Part shown: positions 2,252 to 44,108 of the stretch, one piece after another | Position numbering within the stretch: the stretch's first letter is position 1 | How the letters are laid out: each line of letters begins with the position of its first letter | UHGV virus genome: UHGV-0157893 | Reading direction: 5' to 3' (one strand) | DNA length: 44,450 bases | Source: a virus | The notes under the pieces: generated by a model | Database searches by the model: none | The model's input: the letters and a program-made list of their open reading frames with translations, nothing else | Told to the model about the DNA's origin: nothing | Translations under genes and position numbers: made by a program

Positions 2252-2448
2252 CGCAATAACTCCGTTTTGTTAATTAACTAAACAATTCTACCATTTTGTA
2301 ATCTGTGTTACACTTTGGGCTTATACATAATGTATTTTTTGATCTATATCAACATACGAAATGATAGCTTCTGCGGTGATTTGCTCATCGGATGGGTGGA
2401 TCATCACGAACAACAAATGACAGTAAAACAAACAGTAAGGTGAATACA

Positions 2449-2694
2449 ATGAAAAAACTAATTGTTGCTTGCATCTTATCAGCTCTGTCTTTTGGTGCTT
2501 TTGCTTCTGTAAATTCGACAGATAAGAGTGATGCTGGCACTGCTCAATATGGTGATACTGGCCTTGATAACCAACGTTCGAGTTATTTCAATACTGACTC
2601 ATGGAAAGAAAAACAACTACAAGGTAAAATTATTGACAGTGAATGTAATTTACCTATCCATTTTTCTGGTGTAAATGATGGGTGTAAAAAATAA
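2449..2694 (+). CDS. Small secreted protein (moron), signal peptide predicted
   Basis: ATG at 2449 with AAGGTGA RBS; N-terminus MKKLIVACILSALSFGAFA is a classic Sec signal; opposite strand to flanking tail genes; followed by a terminator. Confidence 0.55.
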   Translation: MKKLIVACILSALSFGAFASVNSTDKSDAGTAQYGDTGLDNQRSSYFNTDSWKEKQLQGKIIDSECNLPIHFSGVNDGCKK

Positions 2695-2703
2695 AAACAA
2701 TGC

Positions 2704-2737
2704 ATAAAAAAACGGGGCTTATGCCCCGTTTTTTTAT
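2704..2737. terminator. Bidirectional rho-independent terminator
   Basis: acggggc-ttat-gccccgt hairpin flanked by an A-run (2706-2711) and a T-run (2730-2736); ends both the plus-strand moron and gene J. Confidence 0.7.
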
Positions 2738-5700
2738 GCTGTCGTTGATGTTCTAAATGATCCGGTGCCTCTTGCTACTATCATTGTTGGAGAATACAAC
2801 GCGGTACAATATGCGTATCCTTCAGATGATGATGTTTGAGGACAATATATTTTCCCGATAATATCTGATGCTTTTAAACCAGAAAAAGCGCATTGCACTG
2901 TTAATGTGCATCCACCATAAGGCACGTAATATGAAATTGTTTTGTTTTTATCTCCGCAACTAAACGTTACGTTATAAGTGGATCTATATTCACCAGACAT
3001 TAATGAAATAGTCGCCATAAGCATAACTGATTTCGTCAATGCATTATCCGTGCTGTCTTTATATGTGATGGTTGCGCTATAACTTCCGTTATGCCCAAGC
3101 ACTCGATCTGGACCAACCCCCATGTTAGCAACGTCACCGACAAATGACTTTGCCTCTACTGTACCTTTAAACTTCCCGCTTGTGGCCTGAATCTCACCAG
3201 TGAATTTACCAGATGTTGCGTACACCGTACCGCGTACAGTGACGTTGTTGAACTCCGCATTGCCGTTTTTATTTAGCATCCAGCCAGCCGAACCAGCTTT
3301 ATAGTTGGTTGACTGAATTTGCTGCGCAATCTTCGCGGTAGTGATTGATGCGTCTCTGATCCACGCATCACGGATGTAGCAAGCACCGTTAGTAACATAG
3401 AACGGGGTCTGATAGGAGCCACCTGCCGCAGTCATAAGCACGAAACGGTCAACGAGGAAAATACACTGCGATTGAACGTTAGTCCCGCTACCAGTAAGGC
3501 CGAGCGACATTCCTGTAGCGTATTTCATACCGTTTTTATCAGTGGCAATCTTAATTGAATATGACGCATCAACGTTACCTTTGAAGTCAGTCAGTGCTTT
3601 TGATGTCGTTTCTATCGCCGTTGTGTTTCCGTTAATAGTTACTTTCAACTGGTCGATTCTGGTTGACAATGCCTCGTCTGCCGTTGCCATAGCCTGTGAC
3701 CATTCCGTGATGCTTGAGTTTACATCGTCGAAAGATGCCGAGATCTGGCCAAATTTTTCCGCGCTTGATGTTTCATGCGTAGAAAGTGCAGTTGACACTT
3801 CGGATACTTTCGAATTAATCGTACTGGTAAGCGATGAGTTAAGGCTGCTGATTGCGTCAGTGCGTGCATTCTTCTCATCTGCGATCGCTTTATCCATCCT
3901 GGTTACGTTGCTTGTCACCTTGCTATCGAGCGTGGAAATTGACGCATTAACCCCGCTAATAGCTTCTGCGCGTGCGCTCGCCTCATCTGCGATTGCTTTA
4001 TCAAGACGGGAAACGCTCGCGTCGGTTTTGCTTTCAAGACTACTGACGCTGGCGTTAACGTTGCTAATAGCTTCTGCGCGTGCGCTCGCCTCATCTGCGA
4101 TTGCTGTGTCTACCCTTGCTATTTCCGCTTTTGTTTTTGTTTGTCCTTTCCTGTATTTCGCCTCAATAACAGTGCTCATCTTGCTTTGCGCCATTGAGTT
4201 ATTAATAAGCGCCAGAGATGCGTTTTGCAGACTTGCTTTCGCCTGATCTATCTCGTCGCTGTTTTTATCAACCTCACTTTTAACGCCGCCAAGCGTCGCG
4301 CTGATACCTGATATCGCCTGAGCACGTGCGCTTGATTCATCAGCGATAGCTTGATCAAGACGGCTAACACTGGCATTTGTGTTATTTTCAAGCGTTGTTA
4401 AATCAGCTTTAACCACTGTTATTGCGTCGCTTCTTGCCTGCGTTTCATCTGATATTGCATTATCGAGGCGCTTAACGCTGGCGTCAGTTTTCTTGTCAAG
4501 TGTTGAGATACTTGCGTTCACGTCGCTGATAGCCTGAGTACGCGCACTTGTTTCGTCTGCAATTGCCTGATCAAGACGGTTTACGCTGGCGTCAGTTTTC
4601 TTGTCAAGATTGCTTATTGAGGCATTTACACCGTTAATAGCTTCAGCGCGGGCGCTGGCCTCGTCAGCTACTGCGCGTTGCACATTAGAGATCTGACCTT
4701 TAAGGTTTGTGTCCATCACATTCATTTCTGCCGTGATGGTTTCCAGTGATTCCGCTGTCGCTTTTTTCTCTTCAGCGATAACGTTGTCAATGCGGTCAAT
4801 TTCCGCTTTCGTCTCTGTCCTGCCTTTCTTGTACTGAGCGGTAAGAGTTACGCGAGTGTTAGTCTGTGCAAGCGAGTTATTAATAAGAGCAAGTGAGGCG
4901 TTTTGCAGACTTGCTTTTGCTTGCGCCAGTTCGCTGCCAACTTTTTCGCTAGACACCTCCAGCGAGTCGATTCTCGACTCATGCTGTCCAATATCATCGG
5001 CGTTTTCCTTAACTTTTTTATAAAGATCTTCCGTTTCTTTTTTGAGCGTATCAGTATCAGCTTTTATTGATCCTGTTTCTATGGTTAGGTTGTCAGTTTC
5101 AGTCCTTAAATCGTCAGTTATGTTGGTCAGATTATCAGTTGCAGCTTTGAGGTTGTCAGTAGCAGTTTTAAGGTCATTCGTAGCGCTTTCGATAAGATCA
5201 GTGCGGTCGCCTAGATCTTTAATGTCACCAACCATTTCTTTAAATTGTTTGGAATTCATTACGTCTTTGGTGACGTAATCGGTAATTTCATCAAAGTTTT
5301 CTGTTGGCTTACCTGACGCTTCCACAAAGTCAGACACACCAAAAGCGTTACGCGCGCGCACATAAACGTAATATGTGTGACCTGTATTCATGCCGCCAAA
5401 CGTCCACTGATGACCACGCCCGGTATATTGTGCTTTAGTGGTTATTGATGCCGGATCAGTGATCTGCGTTTCACCTGAGTAATAAAACTCGTAACTGGTA
5501 TCAGTGGTGAGCGTTGTTCTGCTGATCGGGTAAACTGTAGCCTGGAATACACCGGGAACCCAATTAACGCCAACTGGGGCCGCTGGTGCGCCAATAACCA
5601 GATCGACAATGCTTTCCGCACCCTTCATGCCCGTGTCATTTCTGCCACGAATGCCTAATGAGTAGTTGCCAGCATCAATGCCATAAAAATCATAACTGTA

Positions 5701-7704
5701 ATTCGTGGTTTCGTAGCTTTTAACTACAGCGCCTTCGGCGTTATACACGCGAATCTCAAAGGTCAGGCGACGCGTTGTCGTCTGTGTTTCCCATGTTGCG
5801 CGACATTGAACCGTTTCAGATCCAACGTTTAACACCTTCAGATTTTCAATGTTCGGCACGCGGAAGTGATTAAGCGTGTCGTTATTGATCTCGAAGATTG
5901 CGCCATTATCGACTACGGCCTGCTTATGTGGATCATGCTGTGCGGCCTCGATGGTGTATACGCTGTTATTTTCTGTTTCTGCTACACTGGTGATTCGACA
6001 TAAAACGGGTTTTGCTGCGTTGGTTGATACAGCAAAAACAGTGCCGTTACGAATCCACGCCGGGGCGGCTGCAAGGGTGATAATGTTCCCGTTAACTCCG
6101 ATGATCTGGTGTTTTTTAAATTTACCATCGCTATCAAGTAAGCTGATGGTGTCGCCAGCCGCGATATATTCAGAATCAACCTTGTCGACCGTGATCGCTC
6201 TGCCATTGTTCGCCACGATGCGACCGCCTAAACGAGCGCCTGCGCGATTATTATCGAGGATCTCGATTATATCCCCCGGCGTAAAGTGAATGGCGTCACG
6301 GGCCATTTTAAATGTGAATTTTGACGGCTCGCGTTTCGCTGTTTCGATCAGCCATTTACCAGCGCGGTGCGCTTGCCCGCGTGAAGTGCAACCGAACGCC
6401 TCCAACGTGGTTTCGTTATAACCATCACGGGCGATTAGTTTATCATCTGCGACATATTCTTTTGATTGCTCCCAGCCGTTTTCAGGGTCAGTCCAGGATA
6501 CGATCACGGCGTTGTAGCATTCTGCGCGTGCGATACTTGAACGAGTAAACGCGCCATCAACGACGTTTGCATTTGTGATGGTGGCGATTGGATCTTGTGG
6601 CGCATCAATCATCACGGTAAGACGTTGTCCGTCCCATAACGCGATACCACGGAACATACCTGCGATGTTATCCAGTAGGTCGCGGGCGCTCATTTGCTCC
6701 GTAATGTAAGCGTTAAGCGTCATGCGAGGTTCAAGGCCACCATAGCCATCATCAACCAACTGATCGCAGTATTGAGAAAGCACGTACAAAGCGCCATCAT
6801 CAACATCAATGTAACCAGCATGTCGAGCAAGTCCAAAGCGCTCGTTTTTAACCAGATACCGGAAAAGCCATGCAGGGTTATTGGTATACGCCTTTTTAAA
6901 TCCACCAAGCCATAAACCTGAATATGTGCGCGTTTCAGGGTTGTAGTTGTCAGGCACATCAACAATCAGGCCGCGAAGGTGATAGGTGCGGGTAGGCGTA
7001 TCAGTATACTGATCATGGTCAATTACGGCGCCAGCTACAGCGGTATGAGGATAAGACAGATTATCATCTATTATTTCGCTGTAACTACTCCACCGCGTAT
7101 CATTCCGCAATAGATCGCCGTTGCTGTCTGGTGTTATGCGACGAACGCGAATATCAAACGGTTTTTCATCCGGCGCTTTAATGATGTGAGCTTCCAGGTA
7201 TTCACCGCTTTGTTTACCAGGGCCAATGTGTATGTCTTTAATCAGCGACCACGTAGAAGATGATGACGGTTTAACATCAACCATCAACATGACGGATGTA
7301 TTATATTGATTGCCCTTTTCATCTGACTGAACGAGAGCATCAACACCAAGATTCAACCTGACGCGGGTAACGTTTGGATCTGAAACAGTCCTGATTATTG
7401 GTGTGTCGTGAGTTACCTTTGCGTTGACAATAACGGTTGACTCAATGGCGTTAAAACCATTAATCGGCGATTGGTCAGCCGTGCCGTTGCGCCAGGCTAT
7501 ACTAATCCCCGGAATTGATGTATTCCCGTTTGCGTCAGTAACAGGAGTGTCATTAAGCATCACGTCATTCAATGGCGCTTTCTGGTTTACCGGACCGTAT
7601 ATCGGCCCTTCGCTGAGAATATCTAAAACACGATAAAACTGTTTGTGATACAGGTTATCGTTCAATAATGTTGGTGTTTTGGCTTTGCCGCCGCCGCTAC
7701 TCAT
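2734..7704 (-). CDS. J: Host specificity / central tail fiber protein (lambda gpJ family) with long C-terminal extension
   Basis: 1656 aa; ATG 7704 with AGGAG RBS; N-terminal half aligns by eye with lambda J (ILSEGPI, YHLRGL, YCDQ.VDDGYGG.EPR); C-terminal part has coiled-coil repeats and a distal domain. Confidence 0.9.
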   Translation of the reverse strand: MSSGGGKAKTPTLLNDNLYHKQFYRVLDILSEGPIYGPVNQKAPLNDVMLNDTPVTDANGNTSIPGISIAWRNGTADQSPINGFNAIESTVIVNAKVTHDTPIIRTVSDPNVTRVRLNLGVDALVQSDEKGNQYNTSVMLMVDVKPSSSSTWSLIKDIHIGPGKQSGEYLEAHIIKAPDEKPFDIRVRRITPDSNGDLLRNDTRWSSYSEIIDDNLSYPHTAVAGAVIDHDQYTDTPTRTYHLRGLIVDVPDNYNPETRTYSGLWLGGFKKAYTNNPAWLFRYLVKNERFGLARHAGYIDVDDGALYVLSQYCDQLVDDGYGGLEPRMTLNAYITEQMSARDLLDNIAGMFRGIALWDGQRLTVMIDAPQDPIATITNANVVDGAFTRSSIARAECYNAVIVSWTDPENGWEQSKEYVADDKLIARDGYNETTLEAFGCTSRGQAHRAGKWLIETAKREPSKFTFKMARDAIHFTPGDIIEILDNNRAGARLGGRIVANNGRAITVDKVDSEYIAAGDTISLLDSDGKFKKHQIIGVNGNIITLAAAPAWIRNGTVFAVSTNAAKPVLCRITSVAETENNSVYTIEAAQHDPHKQAVVDNGAIFEINNDTLNHFRVPNIENLKVLNVGSETVQCRATWETQTTTRRLTFEIRVYNAEGAVVKSYETTNYSYDFYGIDAGNYSLGIRGRNDTGMKGAESIVDLVIGAPAAPVGVNWVPGVFQATVYPISRTTLTTDTSYEFYYSGETQITDPASITTKAQYTGRGHQWTFGGMNTGHTYYVYVRARNAFGVSDFVEASGKPTENFDEITDYVTKDVMNSKQFKEMVGDIKDLGDRTDLIESATNDLKTATDNLKAATDNLTNITDDLRTETDNLTIETGSIKADTDTLKKETEDLYKKVKENADDIGQHESRIDSLEVSSEKVGSELAQAKASLQNASLALINNSLAQTNTRVTLTAQYKKGRTETKAEIDRIDNVIAEEKKATAESLETITAEMNVMDTNLKGQISNVQRAVADEASARAEAINGVNASISNLDKKTDASVNRLDQAIADETSARTQAISDVNASISTLDKKTDASVKRLDNAISDETQARSDAITVVKADLTTLENNTNASVSRLDQAIADESSARAQAISGISATLGGVKSEVDKNSDEIDQAKASLQNASLALINNSMAQSKMSTVIEAKYRKGQTKTKAEIARVDTAIADEASARAEAISNVNASVSSLESKTDASVSRLDKAIADEASARAEAISGVNASISTLDSKVTSNVTRMDKAIADEKNARTDAISSLNSSLTSTINSKVSEVSTALSTHETSSAEKFGQISASFDDVNSSITEWSQAMATADEALSTRIDQLKVTINGNTTAIETTSKALTDFKGNVDASYSIKIATDKNGMKYATGMSLGLTGSGTNVQSQCIFLVDRFVLMTAAGGSYQTPFYVTNGACYIRDAWIRDASITTAKIAQQIQSTNYKAGSAGWMLNKNGNAEFNNVTVRGTVYATSGKFTGEIQATSGKFKGTVEAKSFVGDVANMGVGPDRVLGHNGSYSATITYKDSTDNALTKSVMLMATISLMSGEYRSTYNVTFSCGDKNKTISYYVPYGGCTLTVQCAFSGLKASDIIGKIYCPQTSSSEGYAYCTALYSPTMIVARGTGSFRTSTTA
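3840..4700 (-). repeat. In-frame tandem repeats (~108 bp, 36 aa units) inside J
   Basis: Near-identical DNA blocks (agcttctgcgcgtgcgctcgcctcatctgcgattgc at ~3961 and ~4071, variants near 4311, 4531, 4641) encoding TDASVxRLDxAIADExSARxxAISxVNASISTLDxK units. Confidence 0.6.
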
Positions 7705-7717
7705 GGTTTTTCTCCTG

Positions 7718-8924: not shown

Positions 8925-9629
8925 TCAACCCACCTTGCTCGATCCTGGGAAACATGAAATTGGTAACGGATTCGGGCGCGGGAAACGTAAACGGCAACCG
9001 CTCAGGCGGTGGCTGCATTTATCCAGCTTTGGATCGCTGGTCGATTCGTCTTTATCAGTAGCTACAGGGCCGCCACTGTATCCGCAACCGTCGCCGCGAT
9101 ATTGCCATTGGCAAACGTCAGCAAGGATTGTGCGCCCTGGGATAACCGCCTTGTCAGCATCAATTGGCGTTGACAGCTCATATTGCACCTGGTCGGCTGT
9201 TTCTTCGCTCATCGCCTCAACGACGTAAAAAGACACCGCCTCGATAGACGGATCTGCATCCGGGTTGCCGTTGGGGAAGTTGATGGCGTCCAGGTATTTT
9301 ACTTCCACCTGGCGGCGTGTAACTTTCATTCCTCGCAGGTCGTTGAAATCGTTATTCATCCCGGTGATTAGGCCGCCAATGTTGGCTACAACCATTTGCG
9401 GGCGTGAATAGACACCCTCGTTTTTCATTTCGAAGCCAGTGGCATCGATAGGGTAGCTGTTGTAAGCCACCCCCTTCCAGATAACCGGGCCGTAATAGCC
9501 ATTCACGCCGGAATGGAAGCGGATAACCTCGCCACCCAGGGGCGTGAGGTCTAATTCAAACAAGTCAATTACCGCGCCGACTCCGGCATCGACGGAATCA
9601 ATAATCATTTCTCTCGGAATATTGCGCAT
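8925..9629 (-). CDS. L: Minor tail protein L
   Basis: 234 aa; ATG 9629 with AAGGTGAG RBS; aligns by eye with lambda L (IDLFELDLTPLGGE, VKYLDAINFPNGNPDADP, CQWQYRGDGCGYSG, DKCSHRLSGC). Confidence 0.85.
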   Translation of the reverse strand: MRNIPREMIIDSVDAGVGAVIDLFELDLTPLGGEVIRFHSGVNGYYGPVIWKGVAYNSYPIDATGFEMKNEGVYSRPQMVVANIGGLITGMNNDFNDLRGMKVTRRQVEVKYLDAINFPNGNPDADPSIEAVSFYVVEAMSEETADQVQYELSTPIDADKAVIPGRTILADVCQWQYRGDGCGYSGGPVATDKDESTSDPKLDKCSHRLSGCRLRFPRPNPLPISCFPGSSKVG

Positions 9630-9758
9630 TTTCTCACCTTGTCATTCTGTGATCTGCGTCACGCTAAATCATACCAAAATGGATTGATCGCGGTTTTTAC
9701 AATATGTATATTTTACTCAAACGGAAGCATAGTTAACAAAATGGCGCGGAGGTGCGTT

Positions 9759-9947
9759 ATGACTGAAAAGCTATGGAAGTTGACGGTATTCATGACAGAC
9801 GGTAGGGAAAAGGTTATCGCCCTGTATGACGACGAGGGTGAAGCATTGGTTGACGCGCTTTTACTTGCTGAGGATGACCGCCTTTTGGGATACCAGATCG
9901 AACCTGTCAAATATGAGGCTAACAAAAATGAAAAAATACAGTCTTGA
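9759..9947 (+). CDS. Hypothetical small acidic protein (moron cassette gene 1)
   Basis: ATG 9759 with GGAGG RBS 5 nt upstream; 62 aa; opposite strand to tail genes; 3' end overlaps the next gene. Confidence 0.5.
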   Translation: MTEKLWKLTVFMTDGREKVIALYDDEGEALVDALLLAEDDRLLGYQIEPVKYEANKNEKIQS

Positions 9948-10275
9948 TGTGTGGTTAAGTGGTAGCAAGGAGTGTTTCGGATTATTTGATAGCGAAGAAG
10001 TAGCCCTGGAAGAAGGCAGGATTCTTGAATGTAGTTTAGGCCATCCAGTGAAATATGCTGCTAATCCGGTACATATAGTTGATGAGGTGGAAGATATGAA
10101 CCCGAAAGATATTAATGGTAGCTTCACTGCTTATTATGCAGATTCTATGGACCAGTCTTGCCCTGGTGAAATACACGCAAAAGGTTTCCCGGCTGACGAT
10201 CCAGAAGCAAAACGCGAATACGAAAAAGCGGCGAAAGATTTCTGTATCGATAACCTTTCAGCATTCGATAAATAA
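9928..10275 (+). CDS. Hypothetical protein (moron cassette gene 2)
   Basis: ATG 9928 (MKKYSLDVW...), 115 aa, overlaps gene 1 out of frame (translational coupling). Confidence 0.55.
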   Translation: MKKYSLDVWLSGSKECFGLFDSEEVALEEGRILECSLGHPVKYAANPVHIVDEVEDMNPKDINGSFTAYYADSMDQSCPGEIHAKGFPADDPEAKREYEKAAKDFCIDNLSAFDK

Positions 10276-10284
10276 GGCGGCAAC

Positions 10285-10533
10285 ATGGGGCGGCGCAATC
10301 ACGGTGATTATGTGTACACGTTGAAACAGGCCGCCCGCCTCATCGGTTATCATGAACACGAATTTATTGATTTGCTGATTGAGCGCGGGATACTGTACCA
10401 GGTCTGTTTAACGCTGTACCCGAAAGCGAAATACCTACATGAAAAGTTATTCATCATCATGACGGATGAAAACCAGGTTAACCATTCATTCGTCACTGAT
10501 AAGGGCGTTAATTATCTGCGTGATAACTTATAG
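10285..10533 (+). CDS. Hypothetical protein with putative helix-turn-helix (moron cassette gene 3)
   Basis: ATG 10285 with AAGG RBS; YTLKQAARLIGYHEHEFIDLLIERGIL resembles excisionase/MerR-type HTH. Confidence 0.45.
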   Translation: MGRRNHGDYVYTLKQAARLIGYHEHEFIDLLIERGILYQVCLTLYPKAKYLHEKLFIIMTDENQVNHSFVTDKGVNYLRDNL

Positions 10534-10659
10534 GTGACTGATTATAAAAATAGAAGTTTTGGCGCTAATAATAATGTGGTTGATAGTATTTGGCGTTCAT
10601 GCTGTAGATCTGGACTGGAAAACGATAGCAGAAAATATAGCATTAATGGAAATAGAATA

Positions 10660-10695
10660 AAAATAACCCCGCTTCGCGCGGGGTCGTGTTTATAC
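10660..10695. terminator. Bidirectional terminator ending the plus-strand cassette and the M operon segment
   Basis: CCCCGC-ttcgc-GCGGGG hairpin at 10667-10683 flanked by A/T runs on both sides. Confidence 0.5.
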
Positions 10696-10887
10696 GCCAT
10701 CAACCAAAAATAAAACCTCCTTCCCTTCCCGGGATCTACACCCAACGTACCCATCACCAACGTCGTGAAGATACCATATATCGCCGTTGTCAGCTTTTAC
10801 AGTAAGGTCGTTGATCTCATAGTCGTCAAACAATGTAAAAGCGTAAGTTTTGTCAACTACACAAGTCCCGTACATAACAACCCCCAT
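10690..10887 (-). CDS. Hypothetical small protein translationally coupled to M
   Basis: ATG at 10887 shares a base with the M stop (TAATG); 65 aa. Confidence 0.4.
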   Translation of the reverse strand: MGVVMYGTCVVDKTYAFTLFDDYEINDLTVKADNGDIWYLHDVGDGYVGCRSREGKEVLFLVDGV

Positions 10888-11240
10888 TAGCCAACAACTT
10901 GCTCAAACGTTGCGTTTAGCGTGTACAAAGGCCCGTCTTTAGTCATGCTCCATTGCCGACAGACAAAAAGCCTTTGCACGTTATCCATTGACGGCGACCA
11001 GTAAAAAGCCTCGACCGCGCCGCGCGCCCTCAAGAATGCTTCCGCCTGGATTGCTACGTTTCCACCATCACCACATCCGGCGCTACTGCCTTTAAACACC
11101 AGGGTGTAGCTATCAAGCAATGGATTGATACCTTTTACCTGTCTTTGCTCATAACCATCGCCCAGCTTAACAACAGATACGTCTGGCTTCCTGGTCACGC
11201 TGTAGCTTCTTTGCGGCGTCCATCTGAACACTTCCGGCAT
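10887..11240 (-). CDS. M: Minor tail protein M
   Basis: ORF track starts at TTG 11255; ATG at 11240 after a G-rich RBS; VFRW, LGDGY and C-terminal FEQVV match lambda M. Confidence 0.75.
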   Translation of the reverse strand: MPEVFRWTPQRSYSVTRKPDVSVVKLGDGYEQRQVKGINPLLDSYTLVFKGSSAGCGDGGNVAIQAEAFLRARGAVEAFYWSPSMDNVQRLFVCRQWSMTKDGPLYTLNATFEQVVG

Positions 11241-11301
11241 AAAACCCCCCCACAAGTTACATTTTGTATATATCTTTACGCGCTTCTACGCGAAAAATAA
11301 G

Positions 11302-11318
11302 ATCATTGTCACAATGAT
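11302..11318. promoter_or_regulatory. Perfect 17-bp palindrome (operator-like) in divergent intergenic region
   Basis: ATCATTGT-c-ACAATGAT, next to a conserved 25-mer (11275-11299) and a TTTACAAAATGG motif (11328-11339). Confidence 0.4.
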
Positions 11319-11409
11319 TATAGCTAGTTTACAAAATGGCTTCACATAGCACGCAACAAGATGTATATAGAAAGCAAGAAGAAAGTAGTACCAACGAAGG
11401 AGGCCCAAA

Positions 11410-11565
11410 ATGAAACGCTATGTAGTAGTAATGCTAAATAACGCATTCGAACAAGTGGAAATAGCAATCGTTAAGGGTTTCGACGACGCATTCAAATACG
11501 GTCAATTCATGATGAATGCGAAAGAAGATGAATACCGGGACTTCTTCCTGAAGGCACTTAACTAA
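11410..11565 (+). CDS. Hypothetical small protein (51 aa; below ORF-track cutoff)
   Basis: ATG 11410 preceded by AAGGAGG; MKRYVVVMLNNAFEQVEIAIVKGFDDAFKYGQFMMNAKEDEYRDFFLKALN; stop 11563-11565. Confidence 0.5.
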   Translation: MKRYVVVMLNNAFEQVEIAIVKGFDDAFKYGQFMMNAKEDEYRDFFLKALN

Positions 11566-11582
11566 GGATGATGGGGTGAGTT

Positions 11583-11837
11583 ATGAAACTGGTAGCGATT
11601 GACAGAAATCTGAAAGCACAGAAAAACGCACAGGATCGGATCATCAAGAAAGGTAAGGAATTACTTAAAGCCTTTCTGAGAAAAGAAGTTTACCCCAAAA
11701 AGTTACGCGACGGTTACGGATACAAAATGGATATCAATCTTGATTGGAGGCTGTTTAGCGAAGATTTGAAGGTTTGGTTAATTGTTGAGCACCATGCCTA
11801 TAACAAGTTATGTGGCGTGAAAGGCACTCATAAGTGA
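11583..11837 (+). CDS. Hypothetical basic protein
   Basis: ATG 11583 with GGGGTGAG RBS; 84 aa, Lys-rich N-terminus; co-oriented with the preceding small gene. Confidence 0.5.
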   Translation: MKLVAIDRNLKAQKNAQDRIIKKGKELLKAFLRKEVYPKKLRDGYGYKMDINLDWRLFSEDLKVWLIVEHHAYNKLCGVKGTHK

Positions 11838-14266: not shown

Positions 14267-14393
14267 GATTTAACCTCATGCAAAAATGTGATCTGTGTAT
14301 CTATTTTATACAAAATGGCTTTACTTCAATGACTCCATTTTGTATAAGGAAGCTAAAGGGAATGGTCAGTAAATCAAGTTAGCGTGGTGGGTT

Positions 14394-15053
14394 ATGAAAC
14401 GGTTAGCAAAAGTGGCAATGATTGCGGCGGTATTGGGTCTGGTTGGTTGCAATGAGGATAATGAAAAAGCGCCTATAGTGACCAATCAAGAGCAACAAGC
14501 ATTAGCAGAGAAAAATGCTAAATGGCTTGCAGAACAACAAGCAAAACAAGCCGCATACGATGCACAGTTAGAAAAAGAAAATGCTGGTAAACAGTGGCTT
14601 GTAGTTGAAAGAAAAGATGATATGCAGGACGCAAAAAACGTATTCCTTTTTGTGAAAGCAGAACAATTCAGCGGAAGTCTTGATGCTTTCCCGACACTGA
14701 AGGCACAGGATAAGAATAAACCGGTATTAACAATCGCTTGCCAGGGTAATAAAACAAAAATGTTCGTAGCATGGTCACACCATGTAACTGACGCCGGGGA
14801 CACTACTTATATTAACTACCGGATCGGCGTTCACAAAGCTGTAGCTACTGAGTGGTGGCGGTCAACTAATTATAAAGCTCTTGGATTATGGGACGGCAAA
14901 AAAGCCATCCCAATGATTAAAAAACTGGTTAACGAAAAACAATTCATCATTGAAGTAGTGCCGGAAGCTGGCGACATTGAGAAAGCAGTGTTTAACATTG
15001 ATGGTCTTTATAACCACATCGACAAAGTGAAAAACGCTTGCAACTGGAATTAA
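14394..15053 (+). CDS. Lipoprotein (moron; candidate superinfection-exclusion or envelope factor)
   Basis: ATG 14394 with GGTGG RBS; signal peptide with lipobox LVGC; 219 aa; plus-strand island in the tail module. Confidence 0.6.
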   Translation: MKRLAKVAMIAAVLGLVGCNEDNEKAPIVTNQEQQALAEKNAKWLAEQQAKQAAYDAQLEKENAGKQWLVVERKDDMQDAKNVFLFVKAEQFSGSLDAFPTLKAQDKNKPVLTIACQGNKTKMFVAWSHHVTDAGDTTYINYRIGVHKAVATEWWRSTNYKALGLWDGKKAIPMIKKLVNEKQFIIEVVPEAGDIEKAVFNIDGLYNHIDKVKNACNWN

Positions 15054-15063
15054 GGGGTAAATC

Positions 15064-15438
15064 ATGAAAAAAATAATCAAAGCGGTTCTCATTGGTGTTA
15101 TGGCTTTAGCTCTTACAGGGTGCGCAAGATCAACTGATTTCGTTAAGTTAGCTGATAAAAATTTGCAAGTTGGAATGACTTGTGAGCAAGTGAATAAAAT
15201 AATGGGGGAACCACAAAGAATCGAGCATGACGGTAATTATAGTTATCACGTATGGTATTCAGTAACCAGCACGATAGGATTTACTTACATGGATGTTGAA
15301 GAATTATCCCCTTCAAGGGTTATCGCAAAGTTTGATAACTGCATCCTAAAAGAATGGAAAGATCGCAGTAAGGCAAAGTCTGTATACAATACAATCACAC
15401 ACAGTTCACCAGGTACAGCAATTAAAGATTTCAATTAG
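15064..15438 (+). CDS. Lipoprotein with BamE/SmpA-OmlA-like motif
   Basis: ATG 15064; lipobox LTGC; LQVGMTCEQVNKIMGEP resembles the BamE fold signature; 124 aa. Confidence 0.55.
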   Translation: MKKIIKAVLIGVMALALTGCARSTDFVKLADKNLQVGMTCEQVNKIMGEPQRIEHDGNYSYHVWYSVTSTIGFTYMDVEELSPSRVIAKFDNCILKEWKDRSKAKSVYNTITHSSPGTAIKDFN

Positions 15439-29932: not shown

Positions 29933-30182
29933 CCGGCCCCTAGTTTTATTCGTCTTTGTCTCCTTTAAATCCCAAACACTCCGCGTATTCGTCAATGCTT
30001 AATGCTTCTTCACCTGGTGCCAGCAATTCAAAGTAGCGGGCGTATAGTTCAAAAACCCATGCCGGATATTTAGCGTTAGCGTTCATCTTCTTACCTCCCA
30101 TTCGTCTTTCCGTGGCTTATATGTAACAAAATGGCACTGCCTAAACAATGCCATTTCGTAAACTTTGTGTGGTAGATCACAT

Positions 30183-35255: not shown

Positions 35256-35376
35256 AATGCTCCCTCCCTTTAAGGTGATTTCTACGCATTTCAGCGCTGC
35301 CGGATTTTTAAAGAGCATTTCGTTTGCTTGAAGTATACAAAATGGATACACGTAAACAAGACGAAAAGCGCCATTA

Positions 35377-35392
35377 TGTGACCTGTATCACA
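35377..35392. promoter_or_regulatory. Perfect TGTGA-N6-TCACA palindrome (CRP-consensus-like) in 160-bp intergenic region
   Basis: tgtgacctgtatcaca at 35377-35392, flanked by inverted copies of the GTATACAAAATGG / CCATTTTGTAAAC motif. Confidence 0.4.
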
Positions 35393-35414
35393 CAATGACG
35401 CCATTTTGTAAACT

Positions 35415-38550: not shown

Positions 38551-38556
38551 ACATTA

Positions 38557-38646: not shown

Positions 38647-38648
38647 AA

Positions 38649-38867
38649 TTAAGCCTCAATAACACCGTAATCAAACGTGCCTAAATACCGTTCGATACTT
38701 ACAACCTCAATACCATCAATGCACCGTTTCCACACAGACACCCGGCTTTCATTTTCCCGGAAGTGCATATTAGAAAGCACTTCATCGGCTGGATAGCCTT
38801 TCCCGGCGACGTAGGCATCATGGCCTACGCCACCCTCAACGCAATAAAGCATGTATTCGCGGGCCAT
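38649..38867 (-). CDS. Hypothetical protein
   Basis: ATG 38867 with GGAGGA RBS; 72 aa. Confidence 0.5.
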   Translation of the reverse strand: MAREYMLYCVEGGVGHDAYVAGKGYPADEVLSNMHFRENESRVSVWKRCIDGIEVVSIERYLGTFDYGVIEA

Positions 38868-38966
38868 CTTGTTTTCCTCCGTGCCGTAAACCTTTTGATT
38901 TCGGTTTACAAAACGGATACGCGATCACAACACAAAATGTATATTTATGTGATCGCAATCACGCTG

Positions 38967-39587: not shown

Positions 39588-39599
39588 GATATTTATCCT

Positions 39600-39932
39600 T
39601 TATAGTGGATGATGCCATTTCATTTCAGTTTCTGGGTTGAACGGGTTTCCTTCACTTGAAAGGAATAAATCACGCGCCCGTTTTAGCTCTTCCTGGCTTA
39701 TTTCTATTTCATCAATCTGACCGAACGATCCAGGCATCATCCGTTTTAAATCAGATAGCGGGCGCATAAGGCCGCAACCGCGTAACAGCATATCGACCGC
39801 GAATTGTCGCCGCCCGGCGGCGTCATTAAAGCGCCGTGCCCAGGGAACAACCACGATCCGGCGTTCGAATTCAATAAATAGTGATAGCTTGTTTGTTTCG
39901 CTATCATATGCTTTATGGAATTTAATTTTCAT
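39600..39932 (-). CDS. Hypothetical protein
   Basis: ATG 39932 with GAGGTG RBS; 110 aa. Confidence 0.5.
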   Translation of the reverse strand: MKIKFHKAYDSETNKLSLFIEFERRIVVVPWARRFNDAAGRRQFAVDMLLRGCGLMRPLSDLKRMMPGSFGQIDEIEISQEELKRARDLFLSSEGNPFNPETEMKWHHPL

Positions 39933-40113
39933 TTAACACCTCGACATATTGCTCAAGATGCCATTTACCCACCTCGTCATCTTCTTCATCAAATAATGTT
40001 ACTTGACCCACAGGCCCGAAAGAAAAGGCAGCGACAATAAATTTATAGCCATACCACGTGCGGATCTTTTCGCCGCCTTTCAGGTCTTTAACTTTCACTA
40101 ATTTTATAGCCAT
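39922..40113 (-). CDS. Hypothetical protein
   Basis: ATG 40113; 63 aa. Confidence 0.4.
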   Translation of the reverse strand: MAIKLVKVKDLKGGEKIRTWYGYKFIVAAFSFGPVGQVTLFDEEDDEVGKWHLEQYVEVLNEN

Positions 40114-40376
40114 ACGCCAAACATCCCATTCAGTCCGGCGAACAATTTCCGCCAGTGGTCTTCAACATAATCCCGGAACGGCTTAACGCGAACATTGCGG
40201 GCCTTTAGTTCAATCTCATCAAAGTAGCGTGGCTCTATGATTTCCCCGTCCAGATATTTAACCAATAGCGGGCGCTCAAGATCGTTGCACATCTTGTTCA
40301 GTACAACCAATCCAGGGTCATCACGATATTCAGGCAATACGACAAGATCACCAGCCTTTGCATCCCACGTTTTCAT
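40104..40376 (-). CDS. Hypothetical protein
   Basis: ATG 40376 overlapping the stop of the upstream tiny ORF (TGATG); the track's TTG-start 118-aa version is judged an over-extension. Confidence 0.4.
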   Translation of the reverse strand: MKTWDAKAGDLVVLPEYRDDPGLVVLNKMCNDLERPLLVKYLDGEIIEPRYFDEIELKARNVRVKPFRDYVEDHWRKLFAGLNGMFGVWL

Positions 40377-40495
40377 CACAGCAACCCACTGAAAATAAAG
40401 TTGACCACCGCAGCAAGTGCGCCACAAAAAACAACCACAAACAGGAAGCAAATAATGCAAAACGCGACCGTCACAATATCCTTACCGACTTTCAT
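40376..40495 (-). CDS. Tiny hydrophobic ORF (39 aa)
   Basis: ATG 40495 with GAGGT RBS; MKVGKDIVTVAFCIICFLFVVVFCGALAAVVNFIFSGLL. Confidence 0.35.
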   Translation of the reverse strand: MKVGKDIVTVAFCIICFLFVVVFCGALAAVVNFIFSGLL

Positions 40496-40503
40496 GATTA
40501 ACC

Positions 40504-40617
40504 TCACATAGTAGTAATCAGCTTGATGATCGCCACCGTAATATAAAGCGATACGCTAAGATATAGCGCCGCGACAGCCAACGCCGCAGCCAATGCGGCA
40601 ATTTTTGCAAAGCTCAT
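40504..40617 (-). CDS. Tiny hydrophobic ORF (37 aa)
   Basis: ATGA overlap with the stop of 40614..40838; MSFAKIAALAAALAVAALYLSVSLYITVAIIKLITTY. Confidence 0.35.
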   Translation of the reverse strand: MSFAKIAALAAALAVAALYLSVSLYITVAIIKLITTM

Positions 40618-40838
40618 TTGCCACCCTCCGCAATTAACTTATCAAGCCATTTGTTATTAGCCAGCCGTTCGGCATCTTCGCCGAATGATTTACGGTCGCT
40701 TAATTCCTGGCGAGTAGGCTTAGGCCATTTATCGTGCCACCCCGCAGACGTTTCGAACTCATACAGGCCGCCGTCAAAACAAATAAGCTCATCACGACCG
40801 TCAGGAATTTCCTTGTCTACTTCTTTTTCTTCAATCAT
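40614..40838 (-). CDS. Hypothetical protein
   Basis: ATG 40838 with GAGGTG RBS; 74 aa. Confidence 0.5.
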   Translation of the reverse strand: MIEEKEVDKEIPDGRDELICFDGGLYEFETSAGWHDKWPKPTRQELSDRKSFGEDAERLANNKWLDKLIAEGGK

Positions 40839-40850
40839 GATAACACCTCA

Positions 40851-41144
40851 TTAATCATTAATGACCTGGCCCATACGCCCGCGATATTTGCGCATACGTG
40901 GATCGACATATTCAGGCCAGTGCATATCCGGTTTTCTTTGCAGCGGATAAAAACTTGCCTGCCAGTTGTCGAACCATATTTGTTTTGCGTACAGGTCACT
41001 AAATCTTTTTGCCATCCGTTCCGCTGCCGTGCCGCATAAAAAAAGCCCATGATCTATTTGATCACGGGCTTCTTTTAGAACTTGCTCTTTTGTTCGCGGA
41101 ATCGGCGGCGCATCAAGATAGCGCGTAGATCCTGCTTTTGCCAT
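40851..41144 (-). CDS. Hypothetical protein
   Basis: ATG 41144 (overlaps ssb 3' end by about 30 nt); start uncertain. Confidence 0.4.
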   Translation of the reverse strand: MAKAGSTRYLDAPPIPRTKEQVLKEARDQIDHGLFLCGTAAERMAKRFSDLYAKQIWFDNWQASFYPLQRKPDMHWPEYVDPRMRKYRGRMGQVIND

Positions 41145-41574
41145 ATTGTAACCCCATAGGAGCAAATGGGATGTCGTCATCGAAATCAGGAGGGACATCA
41201 TTCCCGTTATTATTTTGAGGCGGTGGCGCTTTCTGCTGCTGGCCTTGCTGCTGGCCTTGTTGGTTAACGTTCATGAATTCAAATTCGTTAACCGCCACTT
41301 CTACCGCCGTTCCCTTCGTGCCGTCGTTCCGGTCATATTGCCGAACATCCAGGCGACCGCTTACCACTATTTTTCCACCCTTGCGGATATGTGGCGCTAA
41401 TTTTTCCGCACGCTCACCAAATACCAGGCAAGTGACCCACATTGTCCGCTTATTATCGCCGTAGCCATTCGTTACAGCTAACGGAAAACTACCAATCGCT
41501 TTCCCGTTTTGTGTGTAGCGAACCTCCATATCATTACCGATATTCCCGCCCAGCGTGATTGAATTTAAACTCAT
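41113..41574 (-). CDS. ssb: Single-stranded DNA-binding protein
   Basis: ATG 41574 (TAATG overlap with erf); OB-fold-like N-terminus, Gln/Pro-rich linker, C-terminal acidic tail DFDDDIPF. Confidence 0.85.
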   Translation of the reverse strand: MSLNSITLGGNIGNDMEVRYTQNGKAIGSFPLAVTNGYGDNKRTMWVTCLVFGERAEKLAPHIRKGGKIVVSGRLDVRQYDRNDGTKGTAVEVAVNEFEFMNVNQQGQQQGQQQKAPPPQNNNGNDVPPDFDDDIPFAPMGLQYGKSRIYALS

Positions 41575-42218
41575 TAACCCATCTCCCCGTTAAGCTCTGC
41601 TACCCGGATGTCATAAACATCTTTTGCCTTGATTCGATGTTCCGATCCTTCCGGTAGTAATTTCCAGCATTTGCCAAATATTTCACGCAGCTTGTTAGCG
41701 TCCTGCGCTTTCGCTGCTGCATCACAGAAACGTGCTAATACTTCATCAGGATTTGGCGGCGCTTTCTGCTGCTGTGGTTGTTGTTTTGGTGGGTTTTTCT
41801 GCTGGCGAGGCTGCTGGCCTGTCTGCTTAGCGTATGCGTCAGTATCAGGATCTCGCGCATCATCAATGCAGAATAAACCGTTCAAAGCATATTTTCGCGC
41901 GTAACTTGATGTCGCACCTGTTAGCTGGCTTGCGTCCATTCCCTTCTTGCTTTCTTCTTCCCTGGCGTAAGCCGTTGCCGCTATTTCGTCTTCACCGTCG
42001 CTTAGCGTCGCCGTAGCTTTCACATAATAGCGATTGCCGATCAGGACAATTTCATCGCTTACAGTCAGCGTAATACTTTGAAGCAGTGGTTTAACCGCCT
42101 CTAAAATATCCTCCGCCGACCTGTAATTATATCCACCAAAATTATTACGCTGATTTTTCGGCGCGTTCAGCGTTTGCTGAACCGTCCATAGCTTTTTATG
42201 TAACTCTGTTTTCACCAT
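41574..42218 (-). CDS. erf: Erf-family single-strand annealing recombinase
   Basis: ATG 42218 with GGGAG RBS; 214 aa; ERF-type N-terminal domain followed by Gln/Pro-rich region. Confidence 0.7.
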   Translation of the reverse strand: MVKTELHKKLWTVQQTLNAPKNQRNNFGGYNYRSAEDILEAVKPLLQSITLTVSDEIVLIGNRYYVKATATLSDGEDEIAATAYAREEESKKGMDASQLTGATSSYARKYALNGLFCIDDARDPDTDAYAKQTGQQPRQQKNPPKQQPQQQKAPPNPDEVLARFCDAAAKAQDANKLREIFGKCWKLLPEGSEHRIKAKDVYDIRVAELNGEMG

Positions 42219-42334
42219 TTAATCTCCCGTGCTGTTAACACTATGTATAAGGCTTTATTCGCGGCGCTCCACATTTCGGCATCGTGAAGCATTTCCGCTA
42301 CTGCCAGTTTGAATTGAAGCGCCTGAATAACCAT
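42212..42334 (-). CDS. Possible small ORF (40 aa) upstream of erf
   Basis: ATG 42334 with GGAG RBS; overlaps the erf start by 7 nt. Confidence 0.3.
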   Translation of the reverse strand: MVIQALQFKLAVAEMLHDAEMWSAANKALYIVLTAREIKW

Positions 42335-42364
42335 AATGTCATCTCCGGATGTTTACATTTTGTA

Positions 42365-42655
42365 TTAATGGTAGCGGACTTTATCCAGGGGTTTTTCCCC
42401 TAAATGGCGTGGTTGCGTTGCGTGGTAGTAGCTGCCGCTTTCATTTTCCGTATACCATTTTACTGATCCTTTGCGACGTTCTTTAATGCTATTTGGTTTG
42501 CATCTTTCCTCGTTTGCAAATCGAATAGCTTTATCCACATTGTCTGTTTTATTGATTGCAGGTGATGATTTTCTTTCGTTTTCTCTTTTTATCCTTCTGC
42601 GTTCCCTGGCATTCATTTTGCTATCACATTTACCATATATAATTGTAACGCTCAT
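42365..42655 (-). CDS. N: N-type transcription antiterminator (P22 gene 24-like)
   Basis: ATG 42655 with GGAGA RBS; MSVTIIYGKCDSKMNARERRRIKR resembles the P22 gp24 N-terminus and arginine-rich motif; first gene after the leftward promoter. Confidence 0.6.
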   Translation of the reverse strand: MSVTIIYGKCDSKMNARERRRIKRENERKSSPAINKTDNVDKAIRFANEERCKPNSIKERRKGSVKWYTENESGSYYHATQPRHLGEKPLDKVRYH

Positions 42656-42711
42656 AATCTGATCTCCGTATATCCTTGATGATACTTAATAAAAAATCAT
42701 CTTCGTTAATT

Positions 42712-42750
42712 GCCGCACTTCCAGCGGCTGACCAGATTGTTAATGAGCGG
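42712..42750 (-). promoter_or_regulatory. nutL-like site (boxA-like CGCTCATTA plus boxB-like hairpin)
   Basis: Minus strand: CGCTCATTAA, 11 nt, GCCGC-TGGAAGT-GCGGC; lies between the PL-like promoter and N. Confidence 0.4.
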
Positions 42751-43003
42751 CTTAACATCTTTCAACTAATCCCGCAATCATCGCCGTTCCCGGCGTGACC
42801 TTGCTCACTCCAAGCAAGCTGACTCGTCGCCTTGCGTGCGGTTTCGTGGGGGATGTAACGCTTTAAACACCCCATGCGCCTTGTTATCAGTGCCGCTTTC
42901 GGTCCCCCATCGGGGAGTTACTCCACGGTTGACAAGGTGTTAAGCCTGATTTTTAAAGTGCCAGGAAGTTGCTTTTGTTACCTGCGCCCTTCCTTTGACT
43001 CGC

Positions 43004-43032
43004 AATATACGCCCCGTAAAACATCGAGTCAA
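43004..43032 (-). promoter_or_regulatory. Strong sigma70-type leftward promoter (PL candidate) within an inverted repeat
   Basis: Minus strand TTGACT, 17 nt, TATATT; overlapped by inverted repeat TTGACTCG...CGAGTCAA (42995-43032) and abutted by the CCATTTTGTATAC motif (43034-43046). Confidence 0.55.
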
Positions 43033-43124
43033 TCCATTTTGTATACTTTTTTAAAATATTTTATATGCCATTGATATTTAAATAATAAATAACGTTTTCT
43101 GTTTACGTTTTGGTGTTTTCCAGG

Positions 43125-43150
43125 CAAAGAAAAGCCGCCATTCGGCGGCT
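43125..43150 (-). terminator. Terminator after the repressor gene
   Basis: Minus strand GCCGCC-gaat-GGCGGC then TTTTCTTTG, directly 3' of the cI-like stop. Confidence 0.6.
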
Positions 43151-43155
43151 AATGT

Positions 43156-43803
43156 TTATGGCAGGTTTACGATCTTCGCATCAACCACCACGCCTATAAT
43201 TTTTGATTCTGGATTCATAGGGATTGGCGGATACAGCGGATTGAGCGAACGTAAAAGCCTTTGACCTCCATCAATAATCAACTGTTTAAACGTCGGTATC
43301 TGCCCTTCCTCAAGCTGGGCTATAACCAGTTTGCCGTCAATAGCTGGCGCGTGCGGGTCCACAAGTATCATCGTCCCCGCCGGGATGCTCAACCCCTGCG
43401 GCGCGTTCATTGATTCACCTTTGGCAACCAGCCAGTAACTGTCATCTGAACAAATAACGCTAGTCGTAACGTGTCGTAATGCTGAACGCCTTGCGTCATC
43501 CATATTGTTTACTGTGTCCTTCCAGTCAATAACCGGGTAACTACCTAAATCACGCGGCGGCACGGCCTGAAGTGTATTAGAAACAGAATCATCAATGACC
43601 ATACCATCATGTGTAACAGTGAACTGCCGACGACCAAGCTCTCGCATAATCCGCGCAATATCTTCAAGATTTGGCTCGCGGCGACCGTTCAGCCAGTGTG
43701 ACAGGCCGCCTTTAGTTATCCCCATGCGATCCGCTAGTGAATCCTGGCTCATGCCCTGCGCCCGCATGAGCTGCTTTGCTAAGTCATACCATTTTGTTTT
43801 CAT
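43156..43803 (-). CDS. cI: CI-like repressor (HTH_XRE plus S24 LexA-type peptidase)
   Basis: ATG 43803; HTH (QDSLADRMGITKGGLSHWLNGRR); C-terminal S24 domain with GESM (Ser) and a downstream Lys (KQL). Confidence 0.85.
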   Translation of the reverse strand: MKTKWYDLAKQLMRAQGMSQDSLADRMGITKGGLSHWLNGRREPNLEDIARIMRELGRRQFTVTHDGMVIDDSVSNTLQAVPPRDLGSYPVIDWKDTVNNMDDARRSALRHVTTSVICSDDSYWLVAKGESMNAPQGLSIPAGTMILVDPHAPAIDGKLVIAQLEEGQIPTFKQLIIDGGQRLLRSLNPLYPPIPMNPESKIIGVVVDAKIVNLP

Positions 43804-44108
43804 GTCGCTACCCTATAACCTCAAAAAGTTTGATGCAAGTCACAAAACGTGTATTTTAAGCCTTGATCTTAAAATTCCATTTTGTAAACTTGCAGACAAG
43901 GTAAGGCCATACTTGCAAAGACGCAAGGAAAAAGATAACGGAAGGCACAAAAAGGCACTTACCTTAAGCTCTTTAAAAATCCGGTGTCGCTGCGAAGCGA
44001 AAAACAAATATCACGCAACGGCGGGATCTGTTGAGCGGTCAGTCACTGCTATCTAATGCTAATGGGATGCCCGCCCGCGCGTTCACTCTAACCATAGGAG
44101 AAAACACG

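Follow-up and report, generated by a model that had tools for sequence, protein, structure and literature searches.

Introduction

A short word recurs in the gaps between the genes of the virus genome UHGV-0157893, and the question that it raises is what this word does there and which protein reads it. The genome is a stretch of 44,450 nucleotides (nt), called here the window, and an earlier inspection of its letters (the original prediction) had claimed a recurrent motif of 12-13 bp, mostly intergenic, often in inverted pairs and more frequent than expected by chance, and had suggested that it is the site of a regulator or a conserved promoter element. The reading that we tentatively favour, with a probability of about 45%, is that the copies act as operator-like sites, dispersed over the genome as parts of promoters and recognised by a protein specific to the phage.

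Nus-dependent, non-lambdoid temperate phages of Escherichia coli make up the mEp021 (mEpimmI) group, and the window is a prophage of this group. Its tail region is about 85% identical to those of mEp010, mEp044, and mEp021, and a prophage of E. coli GN04592 matches it at 100% in the two segments compared (the 648 nt of rep and a 231-nt piece of the nutR2 region). The window runs in the reverse orientation of the mEp021 record; rep, the PL operon, and Q are on the minus strand, together with the genes for lysis, head, and tail, and the plus strand has the PR operon as well as several accessory cassettes (morons), inserted in reverse within the tail operon. Phages of the mEpimmI group have been reported to be as frequent as lambdoid phages in one collection from human faeces, and three nut sites have been published for the group (PMC11893012). 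That paper covers the nut sites, the att sites, and Rep and makes no mention of the motif; full-text literature searches with the motif strings returned nothing relevant. The operators and promoters of these phages have hitherto been unmapped.

Results and Discussion

The consensus of the motif is the 14-mer CCATTTTGTAWACT, and the information is limited to these 14 positions. It is highest at CC, at TTTT, and at G, the most informative positions being the CC (1-2) and the G (8), which correspond to -20, -19, and -13 in promoter numbering, and it is lowest at the final T (position 14, -7). No dyad symmetry was found in the word by inspection. With at most 1 mismatch, CCATTTTGTAWAC(T) has 12 copies in the window against 0.22 expected, and with at most 2 mismatches CCATTTTGTAAAC has 15 matches against 2.1 expected; none of 100 shuffled controls reached either count, and a frequency no higher than expectation, which would have spoken for chance, was thus not what was found. 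A blind search for recurrent 11-mers also put the motif word at the top of the list for the window, with 16 occurrences, and for mEp021, with 15. A chance origin is excluded.

The 44-kb window holds 12 strong and about 5 weak copies, and mEp021 about 12. All the copies listed in the original prediction are present within 1-2 nt of the positions given there, two of them being weak: 11259-11272(+), ACATTTTGTATATA, and 30121-30134(-), CCATTTTGTTACAT. Their placement between genes also held, since 11 of the 12 strong copies are non-coding, as judged by homology to the mEp021 annotation, in a window of which about 85% is coding (binomial probability about 6e-9). The single strong copy in coding sequence is located at 11718-11730, inside the open reading frame (ORF) of a ParE-like protein. 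Eleven of the 14 intergenic copy families are oriented in the direction of the downstream gene (binomial p about 0.03), the three opposite ones being 43034(+), 35401(+), and 30151(+). A role as start-codon context was discarded (ACAAAATGG contains ATG): the few weak coding matches are gene starts (rep at 43789; 18466), and the strong copies open no ORF.

Conservation and Lineage Restriction

When the same tail module was compared, 100 matches were found in 530,618 nt from 30 in-group contigs, where the loci partly share contigs and the matches are not all independent, against 0 in 857,237 nt from 50 out-group phages with an M-like protein of 66-71% identity. The motif was also absent from 24 prophages belonging to other Enterobacterales genera, which have no comparable word of their own. 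A scan of viral contigs for the exact 14-mer yielded mostly single chance matches and is informative only for mEp021-like contigs. In mEp021 itself all the homologous positions have the motif, and a further copy is found between the genes for an HNH endonuclease and the helicase. Alignments anchored without recourse to the motif gave a lower entropy for the motif columns than for the other non-coding columns at nutR2 (0.062 versus 0.288), at PL (0.129 versus 0.419), and at PR (0.123 versus 0.181). The motif is specific to the mEp021-like group and is under purifying selection.

These comparisons bear on the idea that the lineage recruited the site of a host transcription factor. Copies are associated with palindromes that resemble the CRP consensus (described below), and CATTTTG(T)AAAC bears what we take to be a loose resemblance to OmpR sites such as ompC C1. 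However, the word is absent from the 857 kb of out-group phages and from the prophages of related hosts, and by inspection it showed no convincing match to the consensus sequences of IHF, Fis, TyrR, PhoP, CpxR, OmpR, or MarA. A host factor is in our opinion quite improbable.

A second recurrent word of mEp021, TTCTTCGTGCG (13 occurrences; L001 8249-9200, L002 10368-11209), clusters inside the zinc-ribbon genes gp12 and gp65/gp66 and is probably a coding repeat.

Two Registers to Promoter Hexamers

The copies stand in two exact registers to the hexamers of sigma-70 promoters. In the one that we call register T, the last six bases of the motif, TAWACT, coincide with a -10 hexamer, and a conserved TTG/TTT -35 hexamer lies 16-17 nt upstream. 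This register is found in five families (PR, nutR2, 38903, 30121, and moron 1), and the bases between the hexamers are variable. The 5′ half of the word, CCATTTTG, would thus fill positions -20 to -13, with TAWACT serving as the -10.

At nutR2, 34 distinct sequences share one order of elements: the stop codon of a methyltransferase gene, a reverse motif copy, a terminator hairpin (stem conserved, loop variable), a T-run, variable bases, an invariant TTGT, 5-6 variable bases, an invariant (G)TATCCATTTTGTATACT, 15 nt, boxA GCTCTTTAAAAATCCGG, and boxB. Twelve of the 14 motif columns are invariant. This pattern of conservation is that of a promoter footprint, with a predicted -35 TTGTTY, a 16-nt spacer, and a -10 TATACT; what is unusual is the lack of variation in the promoter-proximal 8-11 nt of the spacer. 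In the window the copy concerned (CCATTTTGTATACT, 35332-35345, -) lies directly past terminator t4, with its -35 TTGTTT at 35359-35354 across a 16-nt spacer, and 15 nt before the boxA of nutR2 (35316-35300). The reverse copy (CCATTTTGTAAACT, 35401-35414, +) directly follows the stop codon of the cytosine methyltransferase gene, flanks the terminator hairpin at 35402-35367 (16 pairs), and is under less constraint than its partner (entropy 0.180 versus 0.062).

At the rightward PR-like promoter, the copy at 43877-43890(+), again CCATTTTGTAAACT, supplies the predicted -10 TAAACT (43885-43890), with the -35 TTGATC at 43863-43868 and a 16-nt spacer, and the boxA of nutL (43968-43984) follows. Among 24 distinct relatives no change is seen in the -35 core or in TAAACT (TTGAYC, 16 nt), and the 8 nt between them vary. 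A degenerate inverted partner, CACGTTTTGTGACT (43838-43851, -), points toward rep within the invariant block TTTTGTGACTTGCATCAAA. The copy CCGTTTTGTAAACC at 38903-38916(-) has a -35 TTGTGA at 38930-38925, of which the TTG is conserved in its family (F5), a 16-nt spacer, and the ATG of a 72-aa gene 35 nt downstream.

The other two families of this register belong to the inverted pairs, and the three pairs claimed in the original prediction are real. Two are divergent and have an identical inner spacer of 16 nt, namely 14305-14318(-) with 14335-14348(+), between the tape-measure gene and the reverse moron 1, and 30121-30134(-) with 30151-30164(+) (CCATTTCGTAAACT), at a junction between cassettes of small genes, where TTGTTT (30148-30143, -) is the predicted -35 of the leftward copy; the third pair flanks the nutR2 terminator hairpin.

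The layout of a sigma-70 promoter, a -10 hexamer (TAnnnT) preceded at 16-18 nt by a -35-like hexamer, is limited to these five families: over all 13 sites the match to a -35 is only mildly enriched, 5 of them reaching 4/6 or more where about 20% would be expected. No -35 in their own direction precedes the copies at 35401 and 43034 or those in front of M, L, and the tape-measure gene.

In the second register, register U, the motif lies in reverse exactly 1 nt upstream of a -35 and occupies -50 to -37. It is found at PL and at three moron promoters. The copy at 43034-43047(+), CCATTTTGTATACT, had been described as abutting the -35 of a PL-like promoter, and a canonical PL, TTGACT-17-TATATT, is indeed found there on the minus strand (-35 at 43032-43027, 17 nt, -10 at 43009-43004), being the top promoter match of the region (10/12), with the boxA of nutR1 at 42961-42945. 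The arrangement reads AGTATACAAAATGG-A-TTGACT-17-TATATT, and the alignment of the PL region covered 33 distinct relatives. The moron-1 promoter consists of the reverse motif, 1 nt, TTTACT (14320-14325), 17 nt, and TATAAG (14343-14348). The moron-2 promoter (TTCACA 11341-11346, 17 nt, TATATA 11364-11369, +; offset 1, 9/12) has the copy CCATTTTGTAAACT at 11326-11339(-), which is also upstream of the minor tail gene M. The moron-3 promoter (TTGATC 9684-9689, 17 nt, TATATT 9707-9712, +) has a degenerate copy, CCATTTTGGTATGA, at 9669-9682(-). The predicted promoters at PL, moron 2, and moron 1 score 9-10 of 12, and their spacers are unrelated in sequence; at a chance rate of 0.0075 per fixed offset, the presence of such promoters in at least 3 of 15 families has a binomial probability of about 2e-4. 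Registers T and U are both satisfied by the two pairs whose inner spacer is 16 nt. The predicted transcription starts lie, to within 2 nt, at 43897(+), 42997(-), 38896(-), 35325(-), 30114(-), 14355(+), 11376(+), and 9719(+). Two further relations to promoter elements were tried and dropped: the reverse motif as a -35 (TTTACA) with a -10 of its own has no consistent partner by inspection, and a MotA-box-like element at -30 would lie at varying distances from the downstream -10.

Could Host RNA Polymerase Alone Read the Word?

The exact registers would be expected if the motif were simply a promoter module for host RNA polymerase, with TAWACT as the -10, a T-tract in the spacer, and the reverse ACAAAATGG at -46 to -38 acting as the UP proximal subsite for the C-terminal domain of the alpha subunit; the word would then recur because bidirectional promoter cassettes spread with morons and between operons. 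The proximal consensus of UP elements is AAAAAARNR, and in register U TACAAAATG at -46 to -38 fits 7 of its 9 positions. The 16-nt spacing of the pairs geometrically gives each copy both roles.

The palindromes upstream may point in the same direction. CRP-consensus-like palindromes TGTGA-N6-TCACA number 6 in the window, where 1.04 would be expected, and all but one adjoin motif copies; they are located at 9648-9663, 14287-14302 (half-site), 30166-30181, 35377-35392, 38948-38963, and 43829-43844. Their centres lie 39.5-40.5 nt upstream of register-T copies, that is, near -60 (-59.5 to -60.5) from the predicted starts at five promoters, and the distances 39/40 dominate across relatives. In class I CRP promoters the site is centred at -61.5 and the alpha subunit binds at about -43, an arrangement that the five predicted promoters resemble. 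The palindrome at 35377-35392 is also the top of the t4 terminator stem. These palindromes are hints of an input of cyclic AMP-CRP into the phage promoters.

Against polymerase as the only reader, the CC at -20/-19 (GG at -38/-37 in reverse) and the whole 14-mer are conserved beyond the presumed contacts of the enzyme, while the T at -7 is the least conserved position. To our knowledge a profile high at CC and G8 and low at -7 does not fit recognition by sigma-70, and it suggests another reader. The M, L, tape-measure, 35401, and 43034 copies, which have no -35 in their own direction, and the out-group phages of similar hosts, which have no trace of the word, are also at odds with it.

The copy upstream of the helicase gene is instructive in this respect. 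It fills a gap of 34 nt, in the order stop codon, ATATT, motif, GGAGG, 10 nt, ATG, and it is near-invariant in 32 distinct sequences with three different upstream contexts, in which the spacer between the Shine-Dalgarno sequence (SD) and the ATG varies. TTnACC persists at 17-18 nt even here, as a promoter module would have it, but the start predicted from its TAAACC would fall after the SD. Polymerase alone is, on balance, the strongest rival account of the motif, possible though doubtful.

Morons, Cassettes, and the Helicase Gap

Many copies had been said to mark moron boundaries, and the tail-region copies do travel with reverse-oriented morons, being present only where such a moron is inserted. 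In one relative (L259 about 9900-11500; compare 9629-10887 of the window) M is directly followed by L, with neither moron nor copy; all the others have both. Moron 1 (14394-15438, +) encodes type VI secretion system VasI-like and BamE-like proteins, moron 2 (11410-11837, +) a ParE-like toxin and a 51-aa partner, and moron 3 (9759-10713, +) includes a gene with a KilAC antirepressor domain (10285-10533). Besides the copies already described, the copy CCATTTTGTTAACT at 9731-9744(-) falls, on the plus strand, within the 5′ leader predicted for moron 3, with the SD GGAGG (9748; ATG at 9759) 3 nt further on, and the M gene starts about 5 nt from the weak variant at 11259-11272(+). A strong copy at 2291-2304(+) is located between the tail-fibre gene and moron 4; with two weak copies, 2262-2275(+) and 2320-2333(-), the latter convergent with it, it forms a cluster at 2262-2333.

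In some relatives (L001 6045-6600, L187, L196, L192) the region upstream of the helicase gene has received insertions of two different HNH endonuclease genes. The junction of the insertion is 5-16 nt upstream of the motif copy, which is retained.

Such an association with cassettes might mean that the word is a recombination linker, a short conserved boundary for the exchange of morons and cassettes with no direct role in transcription. The tail copies found only at reverse morons, the genome in which both the M-L moron and its copy are missing, the break in homology among relatives about 20-25 nt beyond the 30151 copy, and the position of the helicase copy at the border of HNH endonuclease insertions are all in line with this. 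A linker, however, leaves unexplained the registers of 1 nt and of 16-17 nt to hexamers across unrelated spacers, and the copies at PR, PL, and nutR2 are not at cassette junctions. Upstream of M, moreover, the conserved block covers the entire moron promoter and so extends beyond the motif, and 13 bases are short for homologous exchange. We consider the linker improbable.

The paired copies and those beside an SD raise another alternative, an element acting at the level of RNA, in which the hairpins formed by the pairs in read-through transcripts would be processing or stability signals and the single copies would tune translation. The folds are indeed stable: the pairs with 16-nt spacing reach -13 to -20.6 kcal/mol and the compound hairpin of nutR2 -37.2 (z-scores -3.3 to -6), and several copies adjoin SD sequences. 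Yet compensatory changes are missing: relatives that alter one nutR2 copy leave the other unchanged. Most copies are single, they occur in both orientations to transcription, and no Rfam match was obtained. The fixed registers to DNA promoter hexamers would be irrelevant to such a role, and we hold it to be highly improbable.

Proposed Dispersed Operators and Their Possible Reader

Dispersed operators are favoured because the full 14-mer, including the CC at -20/-19, is conserved where no contact of polymerase is known; because position -7 is the least conserved; because the helicase copy and the copies lacking a -35 are still under selection; and because the motif is absent from related phages of similar hosts. 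The original prediction of a regulator site or a conserved promoter element is supported: the two exact -35/-10 registers show an association with promoters, and the binding of a dedicated protein, and which protein this is, we infer. In this reading one regulator would act on all the motif promoters at once. A protein bound to the word would occlude the -10 at register-T sites and make contact with RNA polymerase at register-U sites, and it might form a roadblock where a gap is short, as before the helicase gene.

The lead candidate for the reader is Rep, because the nutR2 promoter would otherwise express ninG-rusA-Q in the lysogen, and because the motif is, by inspection, the only conserved word that the PL and PR regions share. 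Homologous to lambda CI over its full length, Rep has HTH_3 and Peptidase_S24 domains, and it is at least 89% identical across the group, being as invariant as the motif. Rep would take roughly half of the weight that we give to dispersed operators; taken by itself, a lambda-CI-family repressor with a dozen or more dispersed asymmetric operators of 13-14 bp, located in the -10 region of secondary lytic promoters, next to the -35 of PL and of moron promoters, and as roadblocks in short gaps, is rather unlikely. Such a repressor might also have a dual output, with lytic promoters off and accessory-gene promoters on.

Several observations count against the operators, against Rep as their reader, or both. 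The CI family reads two-fold-symmetric operators of about 17 bp as dimers, whereas true dyad symmetry is missing from the motif. At PR, in the 24 relatives, the CCATTnTG half is only semi-conserved, which makes this copy the least conserved of all at the promoter most in need of repression. At PL the motif precedes the -35 and so lies outside the core promoter. The motif is also carried by the moron promoters of the ParE-like toxin pair and of a lipoprotein, genes of a kind usually expressed in the lysogen. The relatives detected in IMG/VR and among 5,426 E. coli genomes all have the same Rep, Q, and motif, so that natural co-variation is missing; a heteroimmune relative, which would allow it to be followed, was sought in the same collections and none was found. 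Finally, palindromes of the CTTGC-N6-GCAAG type at PR, with conserved half-sites and variable centres, are candidates for classic repressor operators.

The sequence around these palindromes holds further features. Just downstream of the PR -10 there are CTTG-N4-CAAG (43889-43900), CTTGC-N6-GCAAG (43912-43927), and three ACTTGCA boxes; TTGACTCG sequences, beside CTTGC-N6-GCAAG, could be alternative targets of Rep. The palindrome ATTTTAAG-N7-CTTAAAAT at PR was discarded as an operator, being not conserved in relatives.

The copy at 43877 had been assigned to a cI-rep intergenic region. The copy is there, but the gene on its right, the first of the PR operon (44109-44366, +), encodes an 85-aa protein matching the N-terminal winged-helix domain of an O-like replication initiator (phrog_4617), not Cro, and no Cro-like gene is recognisable. 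This O-like protein, which occupies the position of Cro, ranges from 61% to 100% identity within the group and is an unlikely reader, as it diverges to 61% whereas the motif is invariant. No DNA-binding domain was found in the ten small early ORFs that were annotated.

The rep ORF of the window (43156-43803, -) encodes 215 aa, with the HTH_3 match from residue 10, and RefSeq gives a 648-nt version. The rep of mEp021 in GenBank (L001 11218-11814) starts 17 codons later, at MSQDS, which probably truncates helix 1. The roughly 100 nt between the 43034 copy and the rep terminator (43047-43150) are well conserved, for example, in the block CACCAAAACGTAAACAGAAAACG on the minus strand. If the 43034 copy fired rightward, it would yield a short transcript converging on rep, possibly a small RNA.

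The nut Sites and the Late Promoter

Each of the three published nut sites could sit behind a predicted promoter of its own: PL before nutR1, the PR-like promoter before nutL, and the motif promoter past t4 (TTGTTT-16-TATACT) before nutR2. The motif itself was rejected as a part of the nut sites, as boxA, GCTCTTTAAAAATCCGG, is distinct and lies 15 nt (nutR2) or 77 nt (nutL) downstream, and boxB is also separate.

A candidate Q-dependent late promoter PR′ is found on the minus strand (TTGTTG 28218-28213, 17 nt, TAAAAT 28195-28190), followed about 30 nt later by a terminator with a strong hairpin (28162-28144) and by the holin gene. It is conserved in mEp021, and its layout is like that of lambda PR′-tR′, yet about 5 kb of small genes separate Q from it. 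The motif as a Q-binding element was discarded, since this candidate carries no copy.

Comparison with Known Systems

The closest analogues are the operators and stoperators of Cluster A mycobacteriophages, more than 20 asymmetric 13-mers located in promoters and short intergenic gaps, which are bound by a monomeric two-domain repressor (L5 gp71, TipsytheTRex repressor) (PMC9283540, PMC6550527); in the L5 type the bound repressor blocks the elongation of transcripts. The motif resembles them in being an asymmetric word of about 13 bp with many dispersed copies, in promoters and short gaps, biased in orientation along transcription. It differs in its number (about 12-17 copies versus more than 20), in the 3 of 14 families with the opposite orientation, in its inverted pairs, and in the E. 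coli host; the resident repressor, the only one recognisable, is lambda-CI-like (HTH_3 and S24) and not of the monomeric type with an HTH and a stoperator domain.

Phage P1, the other close analogue, has 22 dispersed asymmetric C1 operators of 17 bp, ATTGCTCTAATAAATTT (PMC8546580). As in that coliphage, the candidate operators of the window are asymmetric, scattered over the genome, and overlap promoters. In P1 the promoters overlapped are those of lytic functions, and some of the operators are paired as well. The P1 sequence is nevertheless unrelated and the present word shorter, P1 is a plasmid prophage with tripartite immunity, and no C1-like protein was found among the window ORFs scanned. 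The motif system is a member of neither the L5 nor the P1 system, from which it differs in sequence, in repressor family, and in its less strict orientation.

With the OL and OR operators of lambda it has in common that Rep is a CI homologue and that the PL-like and the PR-like promoter each have the motif, in a single strong copy. The register-U position, centred near -43, recalls CI bound at OR2 and activating PRM. In contrast, the lambda operators are two-fold symmetric, 17 bp long, and clustered in triplets at PL and PR alone, whereas the motif occurs mostly as single, asymmetric copies scattered between 2291 and 43890.

The likeness to sigma-70, UP, and class I CRP elements lies in TAWACT at 16-17 nt from a TTG-type -35, in the reverse A-tract at -43 to -40, and in the palindromes near -60; those elements, however, are not normally identical 14-mers, -20/-19 included, across a dozen promoters, nor restricted to one lineage. 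As in the lambdoid morons, for which the promoter and terminator boundaries of HK97 and HK022 gave the concept, the copies flank independently transcribed cassettes of the tail operon and vanish where the moron is missing. Classical morons, though, share no common word, whereas here one word is shared and is also used at the promoters of the immunity region.

Conclusions

The motif provides a map of at least 8 predicted promoters and about a dozen candidate regulator sites for a group of phages. A promoter for each nut site could account for the third nut site of the group: if Rep controls the prophage through dispersed operators, nutR2 would serve a third, motif-controlled promoter. The motif also suggests how accessory cassettes inserted backward in the tail operon join the control of the phage. 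If the CI-like repressor is the reader, the system would be a Gram-negative, independent counterpart of the mycobacteriophage stoperators, and genome-wide systems of asymmetric operators would not be confined to repressors of the P1 or mycobacteriophage type.

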